A stretch of 10,052 bases of DNA, from assembly GCA_045105515.1 (NCBI GenBank), contig JBGCDR010000225.1, positions 1-10,052 on the forward strand, given 5' to 3'. Numbering within the stretch: position 1 is the stretch's first letter; each line of letters starts with the position of its first letter. The position numbers and the translations under genes were made by a program. This DNA comes from Oligoflexales bacterium (GTDB taxonomy: Bacteria; Bdellovibrionota_B; Oligoflexia; Oligoflexales; Bog-1112). The notes beneath the pieces were generated by a model. That model had not been told where the DNA came from. It did no database searches and worked only from the letters and a program-made list of their open reading frames with translations. Below, one piece after another: positions 1 through 9,900 of this stretch.

Positions 1-306
1 CGCAATGAAATCTTATTTTTTGCTGGGGTTCATCCTGATCCAACTATCTGCAGTTTAGACCAGGAAGCCATCTCAAAGCTAGCTCATGCTATTCGAGAAA
101 TACCAACCCGCTCCTATAAAAGTGGAGGTTTCACTCGACATGTATCTGAATATGGTGACCTAACTAAAGTAGAAGAACCAAAAAAGCATCGTTTCTATGT
201 ATATGGAAGGATGAATCTACCTTGTTATCGCTGTAAAACAAAAATCAAGCGAATTAGCGACTCTTCGCAACCACTCTATATTTGCCCTTCATGTCAGGGA
301 TTATGA
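1..306 (+). CDS. nei: Endonuclease VIII (Fpg/Nei DNA glycosylase), C-terminal part; 5' end lies outside the window and it is absent from the ORF track
   Basis: Frame 1 reads RNEILFFAGVHPD...KLAHAIREIPTRSY...RFYVYGRMNLPCYRCKTKIKRISDSSQPLYICPSCQGL*. This is the end of the H2TH motif plus the Fpg/Nei C4 zinc finger. It closely parallels E. coli Nei as I recall it (LAHALLEIPRFSY...CERC...SSRPFYWCPGCQ). TGA at 304-306. Confidence 0.9.
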   Translation, partial: RNEILFFAGVHPDPTICSLDQEAISKLAHAIREIPTRSYKSGGFTRHVSEYGDLTKVEEPKKHRFYVYGRMNLPCYRCKTKIKRISDSSQPLYICPSCQGL

Positions 307-371
307 CTCTCATTTTAATTGCGTTCTTGGAAAGTTCTCTTGATCTAAATCTAAATTTCTATAGGTGCTAA

Positions 372-1111
372 TTGATTGGAAAAATTTTCAGATCTGAAAA
401 AGATTTATCTCCCTTGTTAAGGGATTTCGGCATATGGTTGAACCCTAAAAGTCTCAGGGCTTTTCACGTGCGTGACATTTTTCTTGTAAGCCGTCAGCTT
501 CTAACTTCAAAGATAGAACTGATCCCAAAAGAGATACAGAGGGAACTTTCATTGAACCTTCAGGATACATCTAAATGTCTCGAAATGCCTTAAGAGTTTA
601 TTTTTATCAAATATTCAACTCTAATATTTTTAGCTTTGACCTGCGTAGTAGTAGGTTTTATTTCTCGGATAACTGGATGTTCAACGGACATGTTCTAGCT
701 GGTAACTTTGCTAAAACATTCATTGAATCGCTGAGAGAAACCTACGATGGCTATTATCTTGGACAAGATAATTTATTGAAAAAAAGCCTCATTGGTATGG
801 GGTTGATCGGCGATAATTGGTGCAAAGACGACTCTGAAGGACTTACTCTACTTGTCAAAAAGCACTTTGGTGGTGAAGATCGTATTCTCAGTAGATTTAG
901 GGTCAAAGAAATGATTCACTCATTTACTGAAATATTTGAGTTCATAAGAGACGGAAAACCCAAGCTTAATCCTTGCTTTCTTATGTTGGGGGTTTATCTT
1001 ACTAGTCTCTATATGACTCTTGATTCTATAGATGAAGATTTAGATCCGCATGATTGTTATGTTTATGCAAAGCAGATATCTGAAAAGGCCGGTCGCCAAT
1101 TAACCGTATAG
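372..1111 (+). CDS. Hypothetical protein, probably a single ~246-aa gene split by a 1-nt deletion near 583-585 (track ORFs 372..593 and 575..1111)
   Basis: TTG start with AGGTG upstream. Adding one A to 'cgaaatgcc' joins ...DTSKCLE to NALRVYFYQIF. The ATG at 575 is immediately preceded by an in-frame TAA. The stop overlaps the convergent gene by 12 bp. Confidence 0.6.
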
Positions 1112-3423: not shown

Positions 3424-4351
3424 AACCCCCTCCTGGATGTTTTATACGCTTGTCCTCGCTGGTGTCTATAATCTGCTCTGGGGTGCCTGGGTGGTGCTAT
3501 TTCCGGACCTGTCAATGACATTGCTAGGAGCTGAACCAGTTCAGCCGCGGGAGATCTGGCAGTGTGTTGGTATGATCGTCGGTGTTTACGGCGTGGGGTA
3601 TGTCGTCGCAGCAGCCGATCCCCTCAAACACTGGCTTATCGTGATGGTAGGTTTTCTTGGGAAGGTTTTCGGCCCGATCGGATTTGCCAAGGCATTATGG
3701 GATGGGATTTTTCCCCTAAGTTTCGCGTTGAACATTGTGTTTAACGATCTTATCTGGTGGTTGCCGTTTTTTTTGATCTTAAAAGCTACTTATCACAAAC
3801 TGGTTCGAGAGCTCGGTAAAAGTGCCATACTTGATGCTGCTGGAGTTTTTGCTAGCCTCTCGACACTTGGTATCGATAGCGAGCGCACGATCTTACTCGT
3901 GGCTCTGCGGCACACGGGTTGTACCTTCACGCGTGAGGCTATGAGTACCCTAGCACGGCAGCGTGAGGCGCTTAAGCAGAGCGGTTACCTGCTAGTGCTT
4001 ATTCATATGAGTGAAGAGTCTGAATTCGCAGCCTTCGCTGGACGCTATCTTGATACTGGTGACTACCTACAAATCTCTGATCCGCAATCCGCACTTTACC
4101 GCAAGCTCGGCCTCAAGCAGGGCCAACTGGGACAGGTGTTGGGGCCCAAAGAATGGTTGCGTGGCAGCGTCGGCCTACTTTGCGGATACGGGCTCGGTCC
4201 GCTTCGTGGTAATGGTTTCCAGCTCGCGGGCCTATTCTTAATTTATAGGCAACAGTTTCTGCGGGAGTTTCGTGCCAGGCATGCTAGCGAAGCCCTGCCG
4301 ATTGCTGCTTGGCTTAACCAAAGCAGCTTGGATACTTCTAATCGTTCCTAA
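3416..4351 (+). CDS. Membrane domain fused to a peroxiredoxin-like AhpC-TSA_2/PRXL2 (SelL-related) redox domain, 311 aa
   Basis: Start reassigned from 3353 to ATG 3416 (GGGGGA RBS, 8-bp overlap with the hydrolase stop). About 4 N-terminal TM helices (AGVYNLLWG, IWQCVGMIVGVYG, LGKVFGPIG, NDLIWWLPF). C-terminal LRHTGCTFTRE, ISDPQSALYRKLGL, GNGFQLAGLF and FRARHASE motifs. Confidence 0.85.
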   Translation: MVKTPSWMFYTLVLAGVYNLLWGAWVVLFPDLSMTLLGAEPVQPREIWQCVGMIVGVYGVGYVVAAADPLKHWLIVMVGFLGKVFGPIGFAKALWDGIFPLSFALNIVFNDLIWWLPFFLILKATYHKLVRELGKSAILDAAGVFASLSTLGIDSERTILLVALRHTGCTFTREAMSTLARQREALKQSGYLLVLIHMSEESEFAAFAGRYLDTGDYLQISDPQSALYRKLGLKQGQLGQVLGPKEWLRGSVGLLCGYGLGPLRGNGFQLAGLFLIYRQQFLREFRARHASEALPIAAWLNQSSLDTSNRS

Positions 4352-4418
4352 TCGCAGTGAGGTGATGTGTTTGGGTTTTTGAAAAGCGATGCGGTCAAGA
4401 AAATCCAGAAGCAAATCA

Positions 4419-4961
4419 TCACCACTCCTGACGTATCCTGACAATTTTTTCGCGCTCGTAGCCGGCAATAACTACTTTTTCAATCAGCCGTTCGTATACC
4501 TCTGGAGCAAGGTTTGGCTGGCGAGCCATCAACCACATATTCTCGCGCCCGGGACGACCCACAACAGTGTACTGATAGTCTCGTTCGTCCAATGCAATTA
4601 TCAGGTAGTCAAACAATAGCGGCCAAATCGGGCGGATTTTCCAGTGTGCTTTGGTCTTTTCGTCGACAATCCAAGCTTGCTGACTGACCTCGTTTTGCTC
4701 ACCCTGCGCTGAGTCCGAGCGGAATTTGAAACTGACGTAAATCGAGCCATCGCCTTCAAGCCGGTATTCTTCGATGCCGTTAACAGCACCTTCTTCAAAA
4801 GCTGTAGGGATCGACGCGAGGACGTACCATTTGCCCATAAAACGCGGGATGTCGACATCGGTAACGGTTAGATCTCGGTAATGAGAGCTGGAGCTGACGC
4901 AGGCGCTCAGGGGTATAAATAGCAGCGTAACAACAAGCATCAGTGAAGGGTTTTTTGGCAT
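4419..4961 (-). CDS. blc: Bacterial lipocalin (Blc-like) lipoprotein
   Basis: Signal peptide with lipobox LSAC. Lipocalin SCR1 DIPRFMGKWYVLA, SCR2-like DYQYTVVG and SCR3 WLMARQP. GGAG RBS and a TGATGA double stop. Confidence 0.93.
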   Translation of the reverse strand: MPKNPSLMLVVTLLFIPLSACVSSSSHYRDLTVTDVDIPRFMGKWYVLASIPTAFEEGAVNGIEEYRLEGDGSIYVSFKFRSDSAQGEQNEVSQQAWIVDEKTKAHWKIRPIWPLLFDYLIIALDERDYQYTVVGRPGRENMWLMARQPNLAPEVYERLIEKVVIAGYEREKIVRIRQEW

Positions 4962-4998
4962 TGAGAGTCTCCGCGGTGTCTAGCTAGTCGAGGCAACC

Positions 4999-5007
4999 AG
5001 TATAACA
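4999..5007 (-). promoter_or_regulatory. Candidate extended -10 sigma70 element (TGtTATACT) for the lipocalin gene
   Basis: TGn plus TATACT lies about 38 nt upstream of the ATG. No good -35. Confidence 0.35.
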
Positions 5008-5105
5008 CCAAAACCCACGCATCTGAGAGGTTGTTGCGGTCTTGATCTCCGAGATTATCGAGGAATATTTCGCAAAGAAGCTCCTGGGGTGGATAGAAAG
5101 CATGC

Positions 5106-7334
5106 CTAAACAGACCATTCGAGGTCGAATTCTGCATGACCAACGATGACGATTCCGAGATAGCCATCGACCGAAACATGGTCGCCATTTTGCACCTGAG
5201 ACATGATACCAGTAACTCCGTTAACGCAAGGCAAACCCAACTCACGGGCAATGATAGCTCCATGAATCAGCATCCCTCCGCGGCGCTCGACGATTGCACT
5301 GGCAAGAGGAACCAATTGGGTCATTGTTGGTTGAATCGCATCACATATCAAAACCTCACCTACACGAAATTCACCGAGATCTTTTACGGACCTAATCAGA
5401 CGAGCTGGCCCTTTTGCCAATCCAGCAGCAGCAGGCTGCCCGATGAGCTGCCTTCCCGTTTTCTCCTTTAGAGGCTGGGACACTACCGGTGTTTCAAGCC
5501 AAGAGAACGGAGGTGGTTTGCGCTGGGAGCATGGCAAGTTGAGAGAACTGATAATATAATCAACTAGTTTCCTCGGTTCTTTGACTTGACCCTTCGAGGT
5601 GTGATCAAGCCCGAGACGCTTGAGACCTTCATCGATAGCTTTAAGGAGTTGACTCTCGATGCGACCCACCAAGAGATTGTCATCATCTCGAATACGCCAA
5701 CTCTGACGGGCGAGCTCTAACAAGCTCTGCCCAGCTGACCTTTGCTCTGCAGAAAGCTTCTCAAAAAAGAGGTTTTCAAGATCATCCTTCAGCTTGTTGA
5801 CGGTTAGCTCTCGGTCGATCCGACTATACTCGAAGATGGTTTTTAGGAGACTGAGAGGTTTTGTTGCCAAACTCTCACCATTATACAAGACATCCATATA
5901 CAGTTTCATAAAGTTTTGAAAATCAATTAGAAACTCTGAACCCTGAGGAATCTTAATCAACAGGCTTTCATATATAGTCTGGTCAGTTTTCTCAGTTATG
6001 ATCATCATCTCGATTGCATTTTGTAAGGGCCTTGATTTTTTCAGCTGCTTAGCCAGGGTTACAAGGTGTCTATTGCGCTCAAACGCAATCATGGATTCAC
6101 CCTTGAGCAAATCCAAAAACTCAAAAGGATCATCTGGATTTAGGTGGTCGTTGTAGAAAACCCCAAATCGTCGAACGCCATGTGCAAAAGGAATAAATTC
6201 TTCAACGTAAACTTTTTTCCAAAATATATCTGCTTGAGTTCGAGATTCCAGTGTTTGAGCCAATTCCTTGTCACTGAACCCTTGAAGTTCTTCAGCAGCA
6301 AAATGGTCTCCTTCCTCCCTTAGTTGAGGAATGGAAACATTGACTACTTTCTTTGCCAACTTTTGTAACCTCTCATCTCCCGGTTTTAGAGTTAAATACC
6401 AGGGACGTTTGTCATTAGGCTTCTCTTCTAAAGTCGTGATTGGTCGCGATTGGAGAATCGTGAAAGAATCTGCTCGGCCGGTCCACTCGAGATCTTGCGG
6501 GTAACCCATGAGTCCCTCAAGCTGCATTAATATTTTGAGTAGATGTGTCAAGTCATGATCTTCAAGACTGAGCAAGCTCTTATTGAGCTGTTCAGAACTT
6601 TGCTGATAGCTGATTATTTCACCGTCTGTTTTATTAAGAACCCAGCGTTCAGGCTCTAATTCTCCATCCACCAGCTTGGCACAGCCACCTCGAACAGCTT
6701 CGATGATTGCACAAGAAAGATAACGGCCTCGGGGGTCCTCACTAAAAGCCACACCAGAAAAATCTTCATGGTGCATTTGCTGAATCAAAATGGCCATCTT
6801 AATCACTTGTGGATCTAAATTTAGCTCCTTGCGGTAAAGCAAAGCAGCATCGGACCACAATGAAGCCCAGACTGTTTTGATTGCATTCATGATCTCCTCA
6901 AGAGTTATTATTCCCAGCACCGTCTCGTGGAGTCCGGCAAAAGAACCACTTTTAGAGTCCTCACCTGGAGCTGAAGATCGGATGGCCCACTGTTTCCCGG
7001 ACGAGCTGGTCTTTAATTCTTGATAAATGGCATCAGTCACTGTAGGGGGAAAATGACTCCTCTGAAAAGCTAGCCTGATTCGTAAAGCAGAGTCCCAAAG
7101 TTCTTCCCATCGCATTTCCTCAAGGGGCTTACGTCCCATTTCTATTGCTATTAGCTCATCGAGCCGATTGAACTTGATAAAAAGATCATAGGCCACAACT
7201 GATAAGCAGAAACCTCTAGGAACTGGGAAACCATTCTTTTTTAGCTGGGCTACAACTGCTGCCTTAGAACCCACCCAATTAGGTCGACATTTATCGGTTT
7301 CTGACAATTTGATGATTATTGGGGTGGTATCCAC
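5106..7334 (-). CDS. PEP-utilizer-family dikinase with rifampin-phosphotransferase-like architecture (ATP-grasp, central domain, C-terminal phospho-His swivel domain), ~742 aa
   Basis: PPDK_N motifs GSKA, VPRGF, AIRSSAPGEDSKSGSFAG, MAILIQQM, QDLEW and LQSRPITT. C-terminal GGMLIHGAIIARELGLPCV...VDGYLG with the His codon at 5264-5262. No pyruvate-binding barrel follows. Start reassigned from 7463 to GTG 7334 (AAGAGGT RBS, overlaps the upstream gene's 3' end). Confidence 0.9.
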   Translation of the reverse strand: MDTTPIIIKLSETDKCRPNWVGSKAAVVAQLKKNGFPVPRGFCLSVVAYDLFIKFNRLDELIAIEMGRKPLEEMRWEELWDSALRIRLAFQRSHFPPTVTDAIYQELKTSSSGKQWAIRSSAPGEDSKSGSFAGLHETVLGIITLEEIMNAIKTVWASLWSDAALLYRKELNLDPQVIKMAILIQQMHHEDFSGVAFSEDPRGRYLSCAIIEAVRGGCAKLVDGELEPERWVLNKTDGEIISYQQSSEQLNKSLLSLEDHDLTHLLKILMQLEGLMGYPQDLEWTGRADSFTILQSRPITTLEEKPNDKRPWYLTLKPGDERLQKLAKKVVNVSIPQLREEGDHFAAEELQGFSDKELAQTLESRTQADIFWKKVYVEEFIPFAHGVRRFGVFYNDHLNPDDPFEFLDLLKGESMIAFERNRHLVTLAKQLKKSRPLQNAIEMMIITEKTDQTIYESLLIKIPQGSEFLIDFQNFMKLYMDVLYNGESLATKPLSLLKTIFEYSRIDRELTVNKLKDDLENLFFEKLSAEQRSAGQSLLELARQSWRIRDDDNLLVGRIESQLLKAIDEGLKRLGLDHTSKGQVKEPRKLVDYIISSLNLPCSQRKPPPFSWLETPVVSQPLKEKTGRQLIGQPAAAGLAKGPARLIRSVKDLGEFRVGEVLICDAIQPTMTQLVPLASAIVERRGGMLIHGAIIARELGLPCVNGVTGIMSQVQNGDHVSVDGYLGIVIVGHAEFDLEWSV

Positions 7335-7827
7335 TGACAAACCTCTTGAAATCTCATAACGTGAAAGAAACGAAAAAAATCGATCCTGAACAAAACACAG
7401 GACTCCACAGTGATGAATTTGCCCAAATAAGGATGTCGATTCCTCAACAGGTCCGCTAGCCAATCAAAATCCTCAGCAGATGACCGAGAGCAGCGTCCAG
7501 TTGCTGTGAATGACTCCACAGCCATTAAGTTGTCACCTATCGTTGAACGGTTGTCGACCGAAAGTGCCACCCGATCACATTCTTCGAGGAGCCGATACTT
7601 CCTTGTTTCAATATGCGTCGCAAAAGTTCCCACCTTCAGACTCTTGTCTATCGCATAAGCCATCAATGAACCATAGGGCTGCCCCCTCCCTTGAGTACTC
7701 AAATTCCGTATTGTTGCGCTGCCACAAGGTTTCTGATTCTATTTTCAATAGAAGTGGGATTATGCTCATCCTTGACTGGTTCTTGACTAAATGTTGGACC
7801 AAGAACCGGTTCATCTAAATTACTCAT
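7316..7827 (-). CDS. Pyridoxamine 5'-phosphate oxidase-like split-barrel flavin-binding protein, ~170 aa, with an apparent 1-nt deletion at 7701-7703
   Basis: ATG 7827 with AAGGA RBS gives MSNLDEPVLG...IENRIRNLVAAQQYGI*. Adding one T (att ttg) continues into LSTQGRGQPYGSLMAY...FATHIETRKYRLL...VALSVDNR...TATGR, restoring the typical 'xLST...PY.S' first strand. Confidence 0.85.
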
Positions 7828-7875
7828 ATGAAACCGTCCTTTAAAACTGATAGGTCTCCTTAGAGAACTCCCAAA

Positions 7876-7905
7876 TATCCTGTAGCCCCTAAAAAATTAA
7901 GTCAA
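7876..7905 (-). promoter_or_regulatory. Weak candidate sigma70 promoter for the PNPOx/dikinase pair
   Basis: TTGACT-N17-CAGGAT, about 50 nt upstream of ATG 7827. The -10 match is poor. Confidence 0.25.
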
Positions 7906-7973
7906 GTTACTATTGTGATTGAATAACCCCCTCCACACACTCCCTTTATTATTCTCTTCAATAAACAACTAAT

Positions 7974-8369
7974 TTACTTGAAGTCGCAGGCGTGTGAGTC
8001 ACAGGTTTTTTTGCGTGGAAGGTATGGGCGAACCCTTACGAAAATGTGATACCCCAAGTCAAAAAAGCGTCTTCCTACTGAATTTTCCGCTAGCATCTTT
8101 AGGGGAGAAAAAATTTCTAGCTCGGTCCAGATTTCAATGAAAGAATCGACACCTGTCAGTATTTCTCCATCCGAAGACTTAATGTGAAGGTACTTTTGCA
8201 CTAGTTTTGGATCTAAACCTTCCGATTCGGCTGAGAACTGGGGGTGAGAAATATCAATTAATTGTAGGCGGTTGTTTTTATCCCATTTGGAATATGCCTC
8301 GATCTCTGATGCACAGACAATGCATAGTCCGTCATAGTAAATCCTAAGTTTATTCTTTAATTCATTCAT
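7974..8369 (-). CDS. DUF393/DCC1-like thiol-disulfide oxidoreductase
   Basis: N-terminal IYYDGLCIVC (DxxCxxC), LQLIDI, LHIKSSDGEILTGVDSFIEIW, and a C-terminal CDSHAC. AGGA RBS. Confidence 0.92.
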   Translation of the reverse strand: MNELKNKLRIYYDGLCIVCASEIEAYSKWDKNNRLQLIDISHPQFSAESEGLDPKLVQKYLHIKSSDGEILTGVDSFIEIWTELEIFSPLKMLAENSVGRRFFDLGYHIFVRVRPYLPRKKTCDSHACDFK

Positions 8370-8602
8370 GTTATGTCCTGTATTTGATTAATTGTTGAAT
8401 CGATGGTACTCAAAACAATCAACCTCTCTTCCAACTGCATCAGTAAGGTATTACGCAGGCAATCCAACTAAAGTTGGCCAATGCTGCGAGAATAAGTGAT
8501 TTTCAGTGCATTGTGGAAGGTAGCAAAGCTAGAGCTAATGACCAGTGGAAACTACAATATTATCAGCATTATAGAGACAAACGGCCTAGTAATAGTAGTT
8601 GC

Positions 8603-9900
8603 TCAAGGGTTTGGATAACATTCGCCATCTGCACATATTATTCCATGGGCATGAAAAGGAATCACAAAATCTAGTGGTATTGAGTCCAATGTACCCAAGG
8701 TTTTACTATCTAGAAAATCTACAAAACTCTTGTCCAGCATTTGGTCGTAGACAATTGTTATTAGCACTCCTGTCTCTTGATTTGGAGTAGGAATAAAATC
8801 AGCTTCACTCACAAACTGATATTTTGGGTAATTTTTTTCGGCCACAATTTGCGCAGAAGCCACATCTACCTTAATGATCGAATCAAACCACCTCGAGGAA
8901 GTTGATTGAGGGGATATTGCGTAAAACTCTTTGTAACGAGGAGGTCCTTGAGTTTTTAGCCTAGGATCATATGTTGGATAATCGAAGTAGCGTTTTACAT
9001 TCAGTAAATCTGAACAGTGAACCTTTTTCTCTTTTGTTTTGATAATACACCTTTGAGGTGGTTTAAATAAATTTTCCCAATCAGTTATCATCCTATCCGT
9101 GTTATGCCTAAAGTACTGGAACAGATAGTCATGGGTTGAAGCAACACTATCTACGATAATATCTTCCTTCGACTGATAACAATTCCAGAAATGATTATTT
9201 ACAAATGATAGATTACTTTCTGATAAAAACGATTCATTGGTTTTACGATCAAGCACCATCCATAAATTATCTTCCTTTTGGCGTGAAGTTGTTAAAACCC
9301 CATTCACGTTTGGATTCCAGGAAAAATGCCCTTCGAAACTATCCAATTTTATGACCATATAGTCTTTCGTTAAACAAGGTGAATGACTGTGCGGAATCAT
9401 TTTTTTTCTGATAGACTAGTGCGGGCAATCTCCTTAGTTTTCATATCACCTGAACTTGTAACGAGCTCACTTACACAAGCTTGATCTGACAATATTTCTT
9501 TCTTGCAAGGATGCTCTACGTAACACTTCTTTGCTACAGGATCGCATGCGGGATGTGCGTTCAATACTAGGCTATCTACCTTGACTGAGTTTTCAATTGT
9601 GCTTAGATTTCCTGGATCAATTCGTCCCCATGATGATGTGTCTAGAGTGAGCCATAATTGATTATCTATCGGTAACAAATTCACAACAGGATTCTCGAAA
9701 CAGGGTCGAATACCGAAAGTAGGTCATGTACCACTTGCGAAAAAGATACATTGATCAAATGTTCTTGCAGCTTGGCTCATAAATCTAGAAACAGTATAAG
9801 AAATTGCTCCATCCTTGATTTGAAGCTTTAAAACTGATGCTAAGCCATCAAAATGGTATCCAATCTTACCGGATCAAAACTTCCCGGAAGCAATCGATAA
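8603..9900 (-). pseudogene. Carotenoid cleavage oxygenase (RPE65/CCO family), disrupted as sequenced; 5' end unresolved
   Basis: Reconstructed order: YRLLPGSFDP, frameshift at about 9870, GKIGYHFDGLASVLKLQIKDGAISYTVSRF...SGT, in-frame TGA at 9726-9724, PTFG...NPVVNL...NAHPACDP...SEKK, frameshift in the A8 run 9407-9400, MIPHSHS...NNHFWN...FDYP...VSEADF...IPFHAHG. All four iron-ligand His motifs are present. Confidence 0.85.

Follow-up and report, generated by a model that had tools for sequence, protein, structure and literature searches.

An RPH-superfamily dikinase coupled to a probable flavin split-barrel protein: a candidate small-molecule module on an Oligoflexales contig

The gene pair and its coordinates

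The window analysed here is one whole contig of 10,052 nt (JBGCDR010000225.1) from a metagenome-assembled genome (MAG) of an Oligoflexales bacterium (GCA_045105515.1; 6.29 Mb in 461 contigs, completeness 90.9%, contamination 4.8%). Its minus strand carries a gene for a single-chain dikinase-like protein of 742 aa, referred to as the kinase, which overlaps the end of an upstream gene for a small PNPOx-like split-barrel protein, referred to as the partner. The partner gene is interrupted by a one-base deletion in this copy. The pair is a strictly coupled, cross-domain two-gene module within the rifampin phosphotransferase (RPH) superfamily. With a probability of roughly 0.6, the two genes are read as an RPH-superfamily dikinase and a probable flavin split-barrel protein that would act on one small-molecule pathway by RPH-type chemistry. 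The coordinates of all features are collected in Table 1, and kinase residues are counted throughout from GTG 7334 (742-aa form).

Table 1. Features of the gene pair and of the neighbouring genes in the window.
Feature	Position	Strand	Basis and remarks
Kinase gene (single-chain dikinase-like, 742 aa)	5106..7334	-	Stop codon 5106-5108; open reading frame (ORF) list and family consensus
Shine-Dalgarno-like AAGAGG	7342..7347	-	7 nt before GTG 7334; read from the sequence
ATP-grasp (AMP/ATP-binding) domain, residues 1-305	6420..7334	-	Pfam PPDK_N, structure alignment, invariant residues
Central all-helical domain, residues ~317-615	5490..6386	-	Presumed acceptor-substrate domain; AlphaFold2 (AF2) model and DSSP
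RDDDNLLVGR block, R549-R558	5661..5690	-	Translation; counterpart of the RPH phosphotransfer block 9 by one hhalign alignment
Phosphohistidine swivel domain, residues ~627-742	5109..5456	-	Pfam PEP-utilizers, structure alignment
GGMLIH motif with presumed phospho-carrier His691	5262..5279	-	Translation; His691 codon 5262-5264
C-terminal tail EFDLE, past the swivel fold	5118..5132	-	Translation
Partner fragment 1 (N-terminal), 42 codons	7699..7827	-	ORF list; ATG 7827, TGA 7699-7701
Partner fragment 2 (C-terminal), 128 codons, split-barrel core	7316..7702	-	ORF list; -1 frame, TTG 7702
One-base deletion site in T run	7701..7704	-	DNA alignment with ortholog; fragment-1 TGA overlaps fragment-2 TTG (TTGA)
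Overlap of partner 3' end and kinase start, 19 nt	7316..7334	-	Sequence; translational coupling
Lipocalin (Blc-like) gene	4419-4961	-	144 nt downstream of the pair, same strand
DCC1-like thiol-disulfide oxidoreductase gene	7974-8369	-	146 nt upstream of the pair, same strand
RPE65-type carotenoid oxygenase gene, broken	8603-9873	-	At least 3 frames (49, 108 and 270 codons)

The longest frame of the kinase in the ORF list runs on the minus strand from a TTG at 7463 to the stop at 5106 and comprises 785 codons. GTG 7334 is most likely the true start, since it is preceded at the proper place by AAGAGG, coincides with an 'MD' in the family consensus and yields a protein within the range of homolog lengths (739-777 aa). 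This start gives a true overlap with the partner stop (7316) of 19 nt and not the 148 nt that would follow from TTG 7463. The overlap of the two genes reported in a first-pass annotation, made from the sequence by a model, is thus retained, whereas the extent implied by the TTG start is not.

Domain architecture and conservation of the kinase

Two Pfam domains were detected in the 785-aa frame, PPDK_N (188 bits, residues 63-352) and the PEP-utilizers mobile domain (64 bits, residues 702-770), with about 300 residues between them. The same scan returned neither a phosphoenolpyruvate (PEP)/pyruvate-binding domain nor any third domain between or after these two. The first-pass annotation had described the same order of domains, a centre of about 320 aa, the GGMLIH motif and the missing pyruvate domain, and the Pfam result bears it out. 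When aligned with VIA-align, the ATP-grasp domain superimposed on the ATP domain of RPH-Lm (5hv6_A) with a Z of 26.9 and a root-mean-square deviation (rmsd) of 3.0 over 284 residues, and the swivel domain matched the swivels of pyruvate kinase, enzyme I (EI) and pyruvate phosphate dikinase (PPDK) with Z values of 14-17 and an rmsd of about 2.

Conservation was assessed in 22 family sequences that are 44-75% identical to the window kinase. They share 164 invariant positions, distributed over the ATP-grasp (73 of 305), central (39 of 297) and swivel (49 of 114) parts. The invariant residues include GGK24, R119-S-S and S131-F-A-G-L-H in the ATP-grasp domain, R549, D550, D552 and N553 in the central block (D551 and R558 being conserved in at least 90%), and the whole of R-R-G-G-M-L-I-H-G around His691, which aligns with the histidine motif of RPH-Lm and PEP synthase. 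Within the C-terminal tail, E739 is invariant and E735, F736 and L738 are at least 90% conserved, with low model confidence (pLDDT) in this region. The kinase frame in the window is fully open and retains every family-invariant residue. High conservation in all three parts of the protein argues for action on one conserved substrate rather than on a variable xenobiotic.

Distribution and pairing of the two genes

Of 8000 candidates scored in a search of 5.8 billion proteins for kinase homologs, 3946 matched at E<=1e-10. The best 120 of these are 739-777 aa long, 44-75% identical to the query and drawn from many phyla; the closest named one (64% identical) comes from an Oligoflexales bacterium MAG. 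In a scan of one genome per prokaryotic species, at least 832 stretches matched, and at least 803 were confirmed as relatives of the kinase. The database labels of relatives are mostly 'PEP synthase', 'pyruvate, water dikinase', 'PEP/pyruvate-binding domain-containing protein' or 'hypothetical'.

All locus analyses were carried out on the best 80 loci of the confirmed relatives. These stem from Planctomycetota, Acidobacteriota, Gemmatimonadota, Nitrospirota, Gamma- and Deltaproteobacteria, Chloroflexota and Clostridia and from the archaeal Methanobacteriaceae, Methanomicrobiales and Methanolobus, among others. Using tblastn with the intact partner of a same-genus genome (G001) as the query, a partner homolog was found at 73 of the 80 loci, always on the strand of the kinase and ending between -12 and +66 nt from the kinase match. 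After the ORFs were searched with phmmer and a family hidden Markov model (HMM), the number of loci with a partner directly upstream on the same strand rose to 76. One of the other four (L035) offers just 98 nt of upstream sequence, and the remaining three are considered with the interpretation below; the ORF upstream of the kinase at one of them, L070, is a possible integrase, judged by eye. Conservation of the pair had been named in the first-pass annotation as the check to be made, with unlinked genes in other genomes as the outcome that would speak against it; the linkage held.

Family members combine a kinase of some 740-780 aa, in which the RRGGMLIHG and RDDDN blocks are invariant, as found in the window, with an intact upstream partner of about 150-175 aa, which in the window lies in the right place with a 19-nt overlap but is broken by a one-base deletion. 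Going by the ORF matches, the partner gene is intact at 76 of the 80 other loci. Among 131 genomes sampled from the phylum of the window, the partner and kinase profiles matched only the window genome and G001, and neither gene occurred alone. The two genomes belong to one genus and therefore count as one event, and the pattern suggests that the pair was acquired together. A literature search found no paper describing a dikinase and split-barrel pair, and a term search in PMC11602992 likewise returned none. No match to anti-phage defence systems was obtained for either protein with PADLOC.

Relationship of the kinase to RPH, PigC and PEP synthase

All 25 listed NCBIfam matches of the kinase lie far under their cut-offs and cover only the ATP-grasp and swivel parts. 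The scores amounted to 205 against a cut-off of 999 and 130.5 against 1700 for the RPH models (NF041857, NF000283), 192.1 against 1300 and 197 against 1350 for the prodiginine ligase models PigC/RedH (NF052631, NF052632), and 233.1 against 739.75, 234.8 against 598 and 40 against 843 for the PEP synthase and PPDK models (TIGR01418, NF005057, TIGR01828). An RPH-like protein from a related genome (G029), used as a control, scored 1454 against 999 on the RPH model and thus passed. In a search of PDB sequences with a profile of 22 members, RPH-Lm and the PEP synthases matched in the ATP-grasp and swivel parts only.

The kinase was modelled with AF2 at a pLDDT of 84 and a pTM of 0.83. Its central domain consists of helices only, apart from a two-residue bridge assigned by DSSP. 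The best full-length match among solved structures was RPH-Lm (5hv1; Foldseek E 2e-33), to which 663 residues were aligned with a Z of 28.6 and an rmsd of 24 (VIA-align), the latter because the domains sit differently. RPH-Lm was also the only solved protein aligned across the central domain (5hv3: model residues 1-612 to chain residues -1..728), in a whole-model alignment that does not isolate this domain; the PEP synthase and PPDK structures aligned at the two end domains only.

For a comparison at the sequence level, six RPH-like proteins of 878-933 aa were taken from the window genome and related genomes. Profile-profile alignment with hhalign related the kinase family to these six with a probability of 100 and placed about 150 extra residues of the RPH-like proteins directly after the ATP-grasp domain. 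In the same alignment, R549-D-D-D-N...R558 of the kinase falls on an invariant R-E-N..R block of the six, with Asp in place of Glu and Arg in place of Lys. A quick maximum-likelihood tree separated the 22 family rows from the six RPH-like rows by a branch with an SH-aLRT (approximate likelihood-ratio test) support of 100, where the outgroup consisted of these six proteins, one of them passing the RPH model, and contained no PEP synthase or PigC rows. About half of the best 120 homologs carry Pfam PF27448, called Rph_4th in Atlas, and an Atlas search with the central part returned only unnamed clusters carrying this family (score 0.94, few shared features). PF27448 was not reported in the Pfam scans made here.

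As described in the consulted sections of the RPH study (PMC4844700), rifampin is held between the apex and the alpha/beta arm 1 (residues 314-413), and Arg666, Glu667 and Lys670 perform the second phosphotransfer. The same sections report distant RPH clades that keep the catalytic block and lose the rifampin contacts, and predict other small-molecule substrates for them. [quoted passage not shown] Judged by alignment and model, this central domain is related to the drug-binding domain of RPH, in shortened form, and the family fits the predicted distant clades, with the catalytic block present and no recognisable arm 1. Since the central domain is 100-150 residues shorter than that of RPH and shows no alpha/beta arm 1, the substrate is probably not rifampin. 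A different substrate had already been proposed from the length of the protein; the length difference is real (742 aa against the 878-933 aa of the RPH-like proteins), and the missing arm-1 region agrees with the proposal.

That the kinase is a rifamycin-inactivating phosphotransferase, and hence an antibiotic resistance gene, is very improbable. The three domains do follow the same order, RPH-Lm is the best full-length structural match and the NCBIfam RPH model is hit with an E of 2e-60, but the scores stay far below the cut-offs and come from the end domains, the central domain is 100-150 residues shorter and does not show the arm that forms the rifampin cleft together with the apex (PMC4844700, as far as consulted), and a true member of the RPH model from a related genome falls across the fully supported branch. 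An identity of about 45% kept across phyla and a constant partner are likewise unlike a drug-specific resistance gene. Grouping with bona fide RPH, named in the first-pass annotation as an outcome that would count against it, was not observed, as shown by the low model scores, the branch in the tree and the lack of a significant PDB match for the central domain. Still less credible, to the point of being negligible, is a PEP synthase or PPDK of central metabolism. It is suggested by the database names of relatives and by the best NCBIfam matches by E-value, which are PEP synthase models; against it stand the absence of a Pfam PEP/pyruvate-binding domain, the C-terminal position of the histidine domain, scores of 234.8 and 233.1 where 598 and 739.75 are required, and structural alignment to solved PEP synthases and PPDKs in the ATP-grasp and swivel parts only.

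The window genome also encodes a 921-aa paralog of RPH architecture (G000:C45:68626-71391; L092:327-3092). It scored 872 against a cut-off of 883 on the NCBIfam model 'PRK06241.2-2' and 311 on the RPH model.

Fold and likely ligand of the partner

The fold of the partner was analysed on the intact same-genus ortholog. It matched Pfam PNPOx_N (PF01243) with 32.3 bits, narrowly above the cut-off of 28.1, and was modelled with a pLDDT of 91 as a split barrel that has two helices at its N-terminus and whose tip is disordered. A Foldseek search with this model gave 215 PDB matches at E<=0.001. The nearest folds included Pden_1323, MSMEG_6519, PA4388, HOZ and HugZ (TM 0.70-0.75), with proteins that bind flavin mononucleotide (FMN), FAD or F420 close behind. 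By sequence profile, the best matches were GSP26 (E 3e-5), PA4388, two HOZ proteins and E. coli PdxH (E 0.01).

The most conserved block of the partner family is T71-x3-T75-R76-K77, whose T71 and K77 never vary, with at least 90% conservation at T75 and R76. The block lines up with 'gsRK' in E. coli PdxH and 'qSkK' in GSP26, and no T-R-K-like motif was seen at the aligned place in the heme-type proteins PA4388 and HOZ. The R-K pair of PdxH binds the phosphate of FMN. On account of this motif of the PdxH/GSP26 type, a flavin is favoured as the ligand, or failing that some other compound that bears a phosphate. A tetrapyrrole may take its place, given that the nearest solved folds are heme barrels.

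Two metabolic assignments of the module were tried and set aside. A requirement for F0/F420 was dropped, as CofH (TIGR03551) was found above its cut-off in just 8 of 49 pair-bearing genomes, 5 of them archaeal, and 23 of the 49 had no match at E<=1e-30. For a replacement of B6 salvage there was neither exclusion nor support: in a count confined to 51 genomes with the pair, 16 had a PdxH (TIGR00558) that passes the cut-off, and the same-genus genome was among them. The window genome itself contains a CofH-like radical-SAM match (344.5 bits against a cut-off of 374; G000:C68:6330-7334) inside a 729-codon frame, which may be an FbiC-like fusion or a relative of MqnE/MqnC.

Frameshift in the partner gene and state of this copy

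The partner gene had been taken for a single open frame from 7827 to 7316; this did not hold, as it is split into two frames by a one-base deletion. The same-genus genome carries an intact 170-aa ortholog at the equivalent place (L005:3702-4214), where it overlaps the kinase gene (L005:1483-3726) by up to 25 nt. The window fragments match residues 1-42 and 43-170 of this ortholog, the latter with 80% identity, and add up to the full 170 codons; in the DNA alignment, one base is absent from a T run. Fragment 2 was recognised by the family partner profile with an E of 3e-50 (hmmsearch), and scored 22.9 bits on Pfam PNPOx_N, under the cut-off of 28.1. A second copy of the partner was not found in the genome of the window.

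Contigs assembled separately from sequencing runs X1 and X2 (depth 10.6 and 38) showed 0 differences to the window over 5000-8713. The deletion is thus reproduced in two run assemblies and is not an assembler slip. It may be that the source samples are these very runs, and minority alleles are lost from contigs, so that the result is compatible with a population-wide allele while an intact allele may coexist. Related-strain contigs from runs X4 and X5 end at 7603 and 7625, short of 7701-7704. The contig from run X4 (depth 2.9) lacks 4 bases at 7379, in the 3' part of the partner gene near the kinase start, which could stem from an error or from a second lesion that arose independently.

Because the TGA of fragment 1 overlaps the TTG of fragment 2, a translational restart at TTGA is conceivable from the sequence. 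Programmed -1 frameshifting at 7701-7704 was considered and rejected, as no X-XXY-YYZ heptamer was seen in the zero frame. A run of three T residues is too short for the usual transcriptional slippage.

From the one-base loss, the module in this genome has probably been disabled recently, or the partner is at best made as two pieces, with the kinase intact. Going further, this copy could be a decaying remnant, its partner a young pseudogene and its kinase intact but functionless, and here the balance is even. The reproduced deletion, the lack of a second partner copy, the carotenoid oxygenase gene broken into at least 3 frames on the same contig and the loss of 4 bases at 7379 in a related strain's contig of low depth all point towards decay. 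Against this, there is a single lesion, the fragments still total 170 codons with the C-terminal 128 residues 80% identical to the ortholog, a restart at the overlapping TTG is conceivable, the kinase frame is open with all invariant residues present, and an intact allele may have been lost from the contigs as a rare variant. With its frameshifted partner, the window copy is a poor experimental template, and intact loci such as the same-genus one are better suited.

Possible physical association of kinase and partner

Most kinases of the family end in a poorly ordered C-terminal tail of the form (P/A)(E/D)F-x-LE, and their partners carry an N-terminal extension of about 35 residues that usually starts with D-E-P. 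Among 60 loci scored by regular expression, both elements were present at 48 and neither at 7, and 5 were mixed. When the mixed loci were inspected by eye, two did have the tail and one had a partner cut by the contig end, leaving L071 and L074 as real exceptions; three loci outside the scoring have neither element. The loci without tail and extension form a divergent subgroup (Desulfobacterota-type, Methanolobus, some Clostridia and Ancylomarina) that is possibly one clade, in which case the co-variation may reflect a single event. The divergent subfamily comprises loci L071, L079-L083 and L085-L091. Archaeal partners contain two cysteines in the N-terminal extension.

Complex prediction for the G001 pair gave a score of 0.38 (runs 0.00, 0.38 and 0.49), against 0.00 for the best control, which is weak support. 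Of 157 solved complexes, 116 attained the mark applied to the score, as did 2 of 215 mismatched pairs; those that did so at scores of 0.60 or less comprise both of these mismatches but only 18 of the solved complexes. Between runs, at least 0% of contacts agreed, the pLDDT of the partner was at least 77 and no contacts were returned. Among proteins 299-2000 aa long, a fusion of partner and kinase did not turn up (weak evidence).

These data bear on an alternative that is unlikely, though by a smaller measure than the enzymes named above, namely that the partner, rather than being a separate enzyme, belongs to the kinase as a subunit. Its docking site would be the shortened central domain, at the place of the missing arm 1, and it would hold the acceptor, such as a flavin-like cofactor within the barrel, or itself be phosphorylated. 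The fixed gene order, with overlapping genes at nearly all loci, accords with this proposal, as do the lack of an arm-1-type alpha/beta part, the weak complex score and the joint presence or absence of tail and extension. It is countered by the zero run and the missing contacts, by the lack of a fusion among longer proteins, by the concentration of loci without tail and extension in the most divergent subgroup, possibly a single evolutionary event, and by three loci at which the kinase has no upstream partner. Spelled out in full, and equally doubtful, the pair would be a two-subunit dikinase docked via the EFDLE tail and the D-E-P extension that presents a barrel-held flavin- or tetrapyrrole-like cofactor for ATP-driven phosphorylation. 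If that were true, the module would provide a step of cofactor modification or repair under light or oxidative stress in bacteria and archaea.

Genomic neighbourhood

The families most often found near the pair are two amine-oxidase-like flavoproteins, fasciclin, glutathione peroxidase (GSHPx), photolyase-related DPRP, a photolyase FAD domain, SDR, CIA30 and DCC1-like proteins. At least one of these nine occurs at 40 of the 80 loci, a set that was picked after the clusters had been seen and has no background control. The genes downstream of the pair also include BLUF, rhodopsin, superoxide dismutase, a CMAS-like methyltransferase, FMN reductase, nitroreductase and a SOUL heme-binding protein, in a scan that covered 61 of 67 ORFs, left out six under about 110 aa and relied on greedy gene calls, with noise in the GC-rich loci. 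Genes like these are members of singlet-oxygen and light regulons. As the variable neighbours are often of this kind, they suggest a role of the pair in coping with light or oxidative stress.

The window agrees with this pattern: the pair is flanked by the lipocalin and DCC1-like genes (Table 1), the latter having counterparts near the pair at 4 of the 80 other loci. An AhpC/TSA_2 protein and the broken carotenoid oxygenase gene were also identified near the pair with Pfam. Only the last piece of the oxygenase gene matches Pfam RPE65 (profile positions 204-465), and its reading frames look like those of a pseudogene. The contigs from runs X1 and X2 both break at 8705-8713, with loose ends of 20-21 nt on each side; this may be a strain-variable or repeated junction in the broken gene, or a weak join in the contig. 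Run X1 further yielded a 151-nt variant contig with 22 differences at 8742-8892. The GC content is about 0.51 over approximately 2.5-5.5 kb (alpha/beta hydrolase, AhpC/TSA_2-like protein, lipocalin and the 3' end of the kinase gene) and 0.36-0.39 at the contig ends. A scan of 4300-8700 for promoters and terminators gave counts at the level of shuffled sequence (7 against 5.7 and 3 against 3.4, respectively).

Proposed mechanism and significance

According to the preferred reading, the kinase and the partner would serve adjacent steps of one small-molecule pathway. By homology, the ATP-grasp domain is expected to bind ATP, and His691 in the GGMLIH motif of the swivel domain to take the beta-phosphate, with release of AMP and phosphate. 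The swivel domain would then ferry the phosphate to the helical central domain, where the R549-D-D-D-N...R558 block, like Arg666-Glu667...Lys670 of RPH, may position it for transfer to a hydroxyl of a small molecule. The partner most likely binds a flavin and would oxidise or reduce the same compound in the adjacent step.

Several observations weigh against this reading. The central domain, on which the choice of acceptor would depend, has no significant PDB sequence match by profile search (stretch score -0.2 bits), and the equivalence of its conserved block to that of RPH comes from one profile-profile alignment that is anchored by the flanking domains. The nearest folds of the partner are heme-handling barrels and CREG, ahead of FMN proteins (6vna, 1xhn, 5bnc, 2arz, 6m0a, 3gas). 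Three loci (L029, L070 and L075) have no partner despite room upstream, where other ORFs sit. As to the stress role, no third gene is constant near the pair, the commonest families reaching 4-10 of the 80 loci each, the nine families were chosen with the clusters in view, and the module is also present in strict anaerobes and methanogens. Finally, the frameshift in the partner means that the window copy may have no activity.

The kinase family is encoded by at least 803 species-level genomes, and the enzyme names currently given to its members do not fit. The strict coupling to a split-barrel protein offers a concrete handle on function. Once found, the substrate would represent a new acceptor class for His-swivel dikinases and allow annotations and resistome predictions to be corrected, and it might reveal a cofactor-handling step tied to light and oxidative stress.

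Comparison with known systems

The closest characterised enzyme is RPH-Lm (5HV1, 5FBS-5FBU; Stogios et al. 2016, PMC4844700). Both proteins are single chains composed of an ATP-grasp domain, a helical acceptor domain and a C-terminal His-swivel domain, and the ATP-site residues and carrier histidine of RPH-Lm are conserved in the kinase. RPH-Lm is longer (about 865 aa compared to 742 aa), and the central domain of the kinase is 100-150 residues shorter, all-helical and shows no arm 1. The kinase also has a split-barrel partner, and none is mentioned for RPH in the consulted sections of PMC4844700. For the distant clades of the RPH superfamily, these sections mention neither a partner gene nor the loss of arm 1.

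PigC, RedH and HapC belong to the same superfamily and have the same end domains (NCBIfam E 1e-56 to 4e-58), but comprise about 880 aa rather than 742, and no pigment-pathway neighbours were seen around the loci of the pair. PEP synthase and PPDK likewise contain ATP-grasp and phosphohistidine swivel domains. The kinase differs from them in that it has no PEP/pyruvate domain, carries its histidine domain at the C-terminus and not in the centre, and shows GGMLIH instead of the Thr-Ser-His form of the motif.

HpeHI, of the phenylphosphate-synthase type, resembles the module in applying RPH-like chemistry to small phenolics and in using more than one polypeptide, according to the consulted part of PMC12167813. 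The ATP-grasp domain of the kinase is similar to HpeI (9GOJ; Foldseek E 2e-15, VIA Z 22.6). In HpeHI, as described there, the ATP-grasp part is one protein and the acceptor-plus-swivel part another, while the kinase unites them in one chain and the second protein of the module is an unrelated split barrel.

The partner, in turn, has two sets of relatives among the PNPOx-like split barrels. It shares its fold, weak profile matches and the T-x3-T-R-K motif with the FMN-type proteins PdxH and GSP26, and its fold with the heme-type proteins Pden_1323, HugZ, HOZ and PA4388 (TM 0.70-0.75 to 6vna, 5bnc, 2arz and 3gas; PMC8131568 and PMC11602992, each consulted in part). It is only 12-19% identical to these barrels and lacks both a DUF2470/DRI-type and a PdxH C-terminal domain. 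Unlike them, it has a conserved N-terminal extension and is paired with a kinase.

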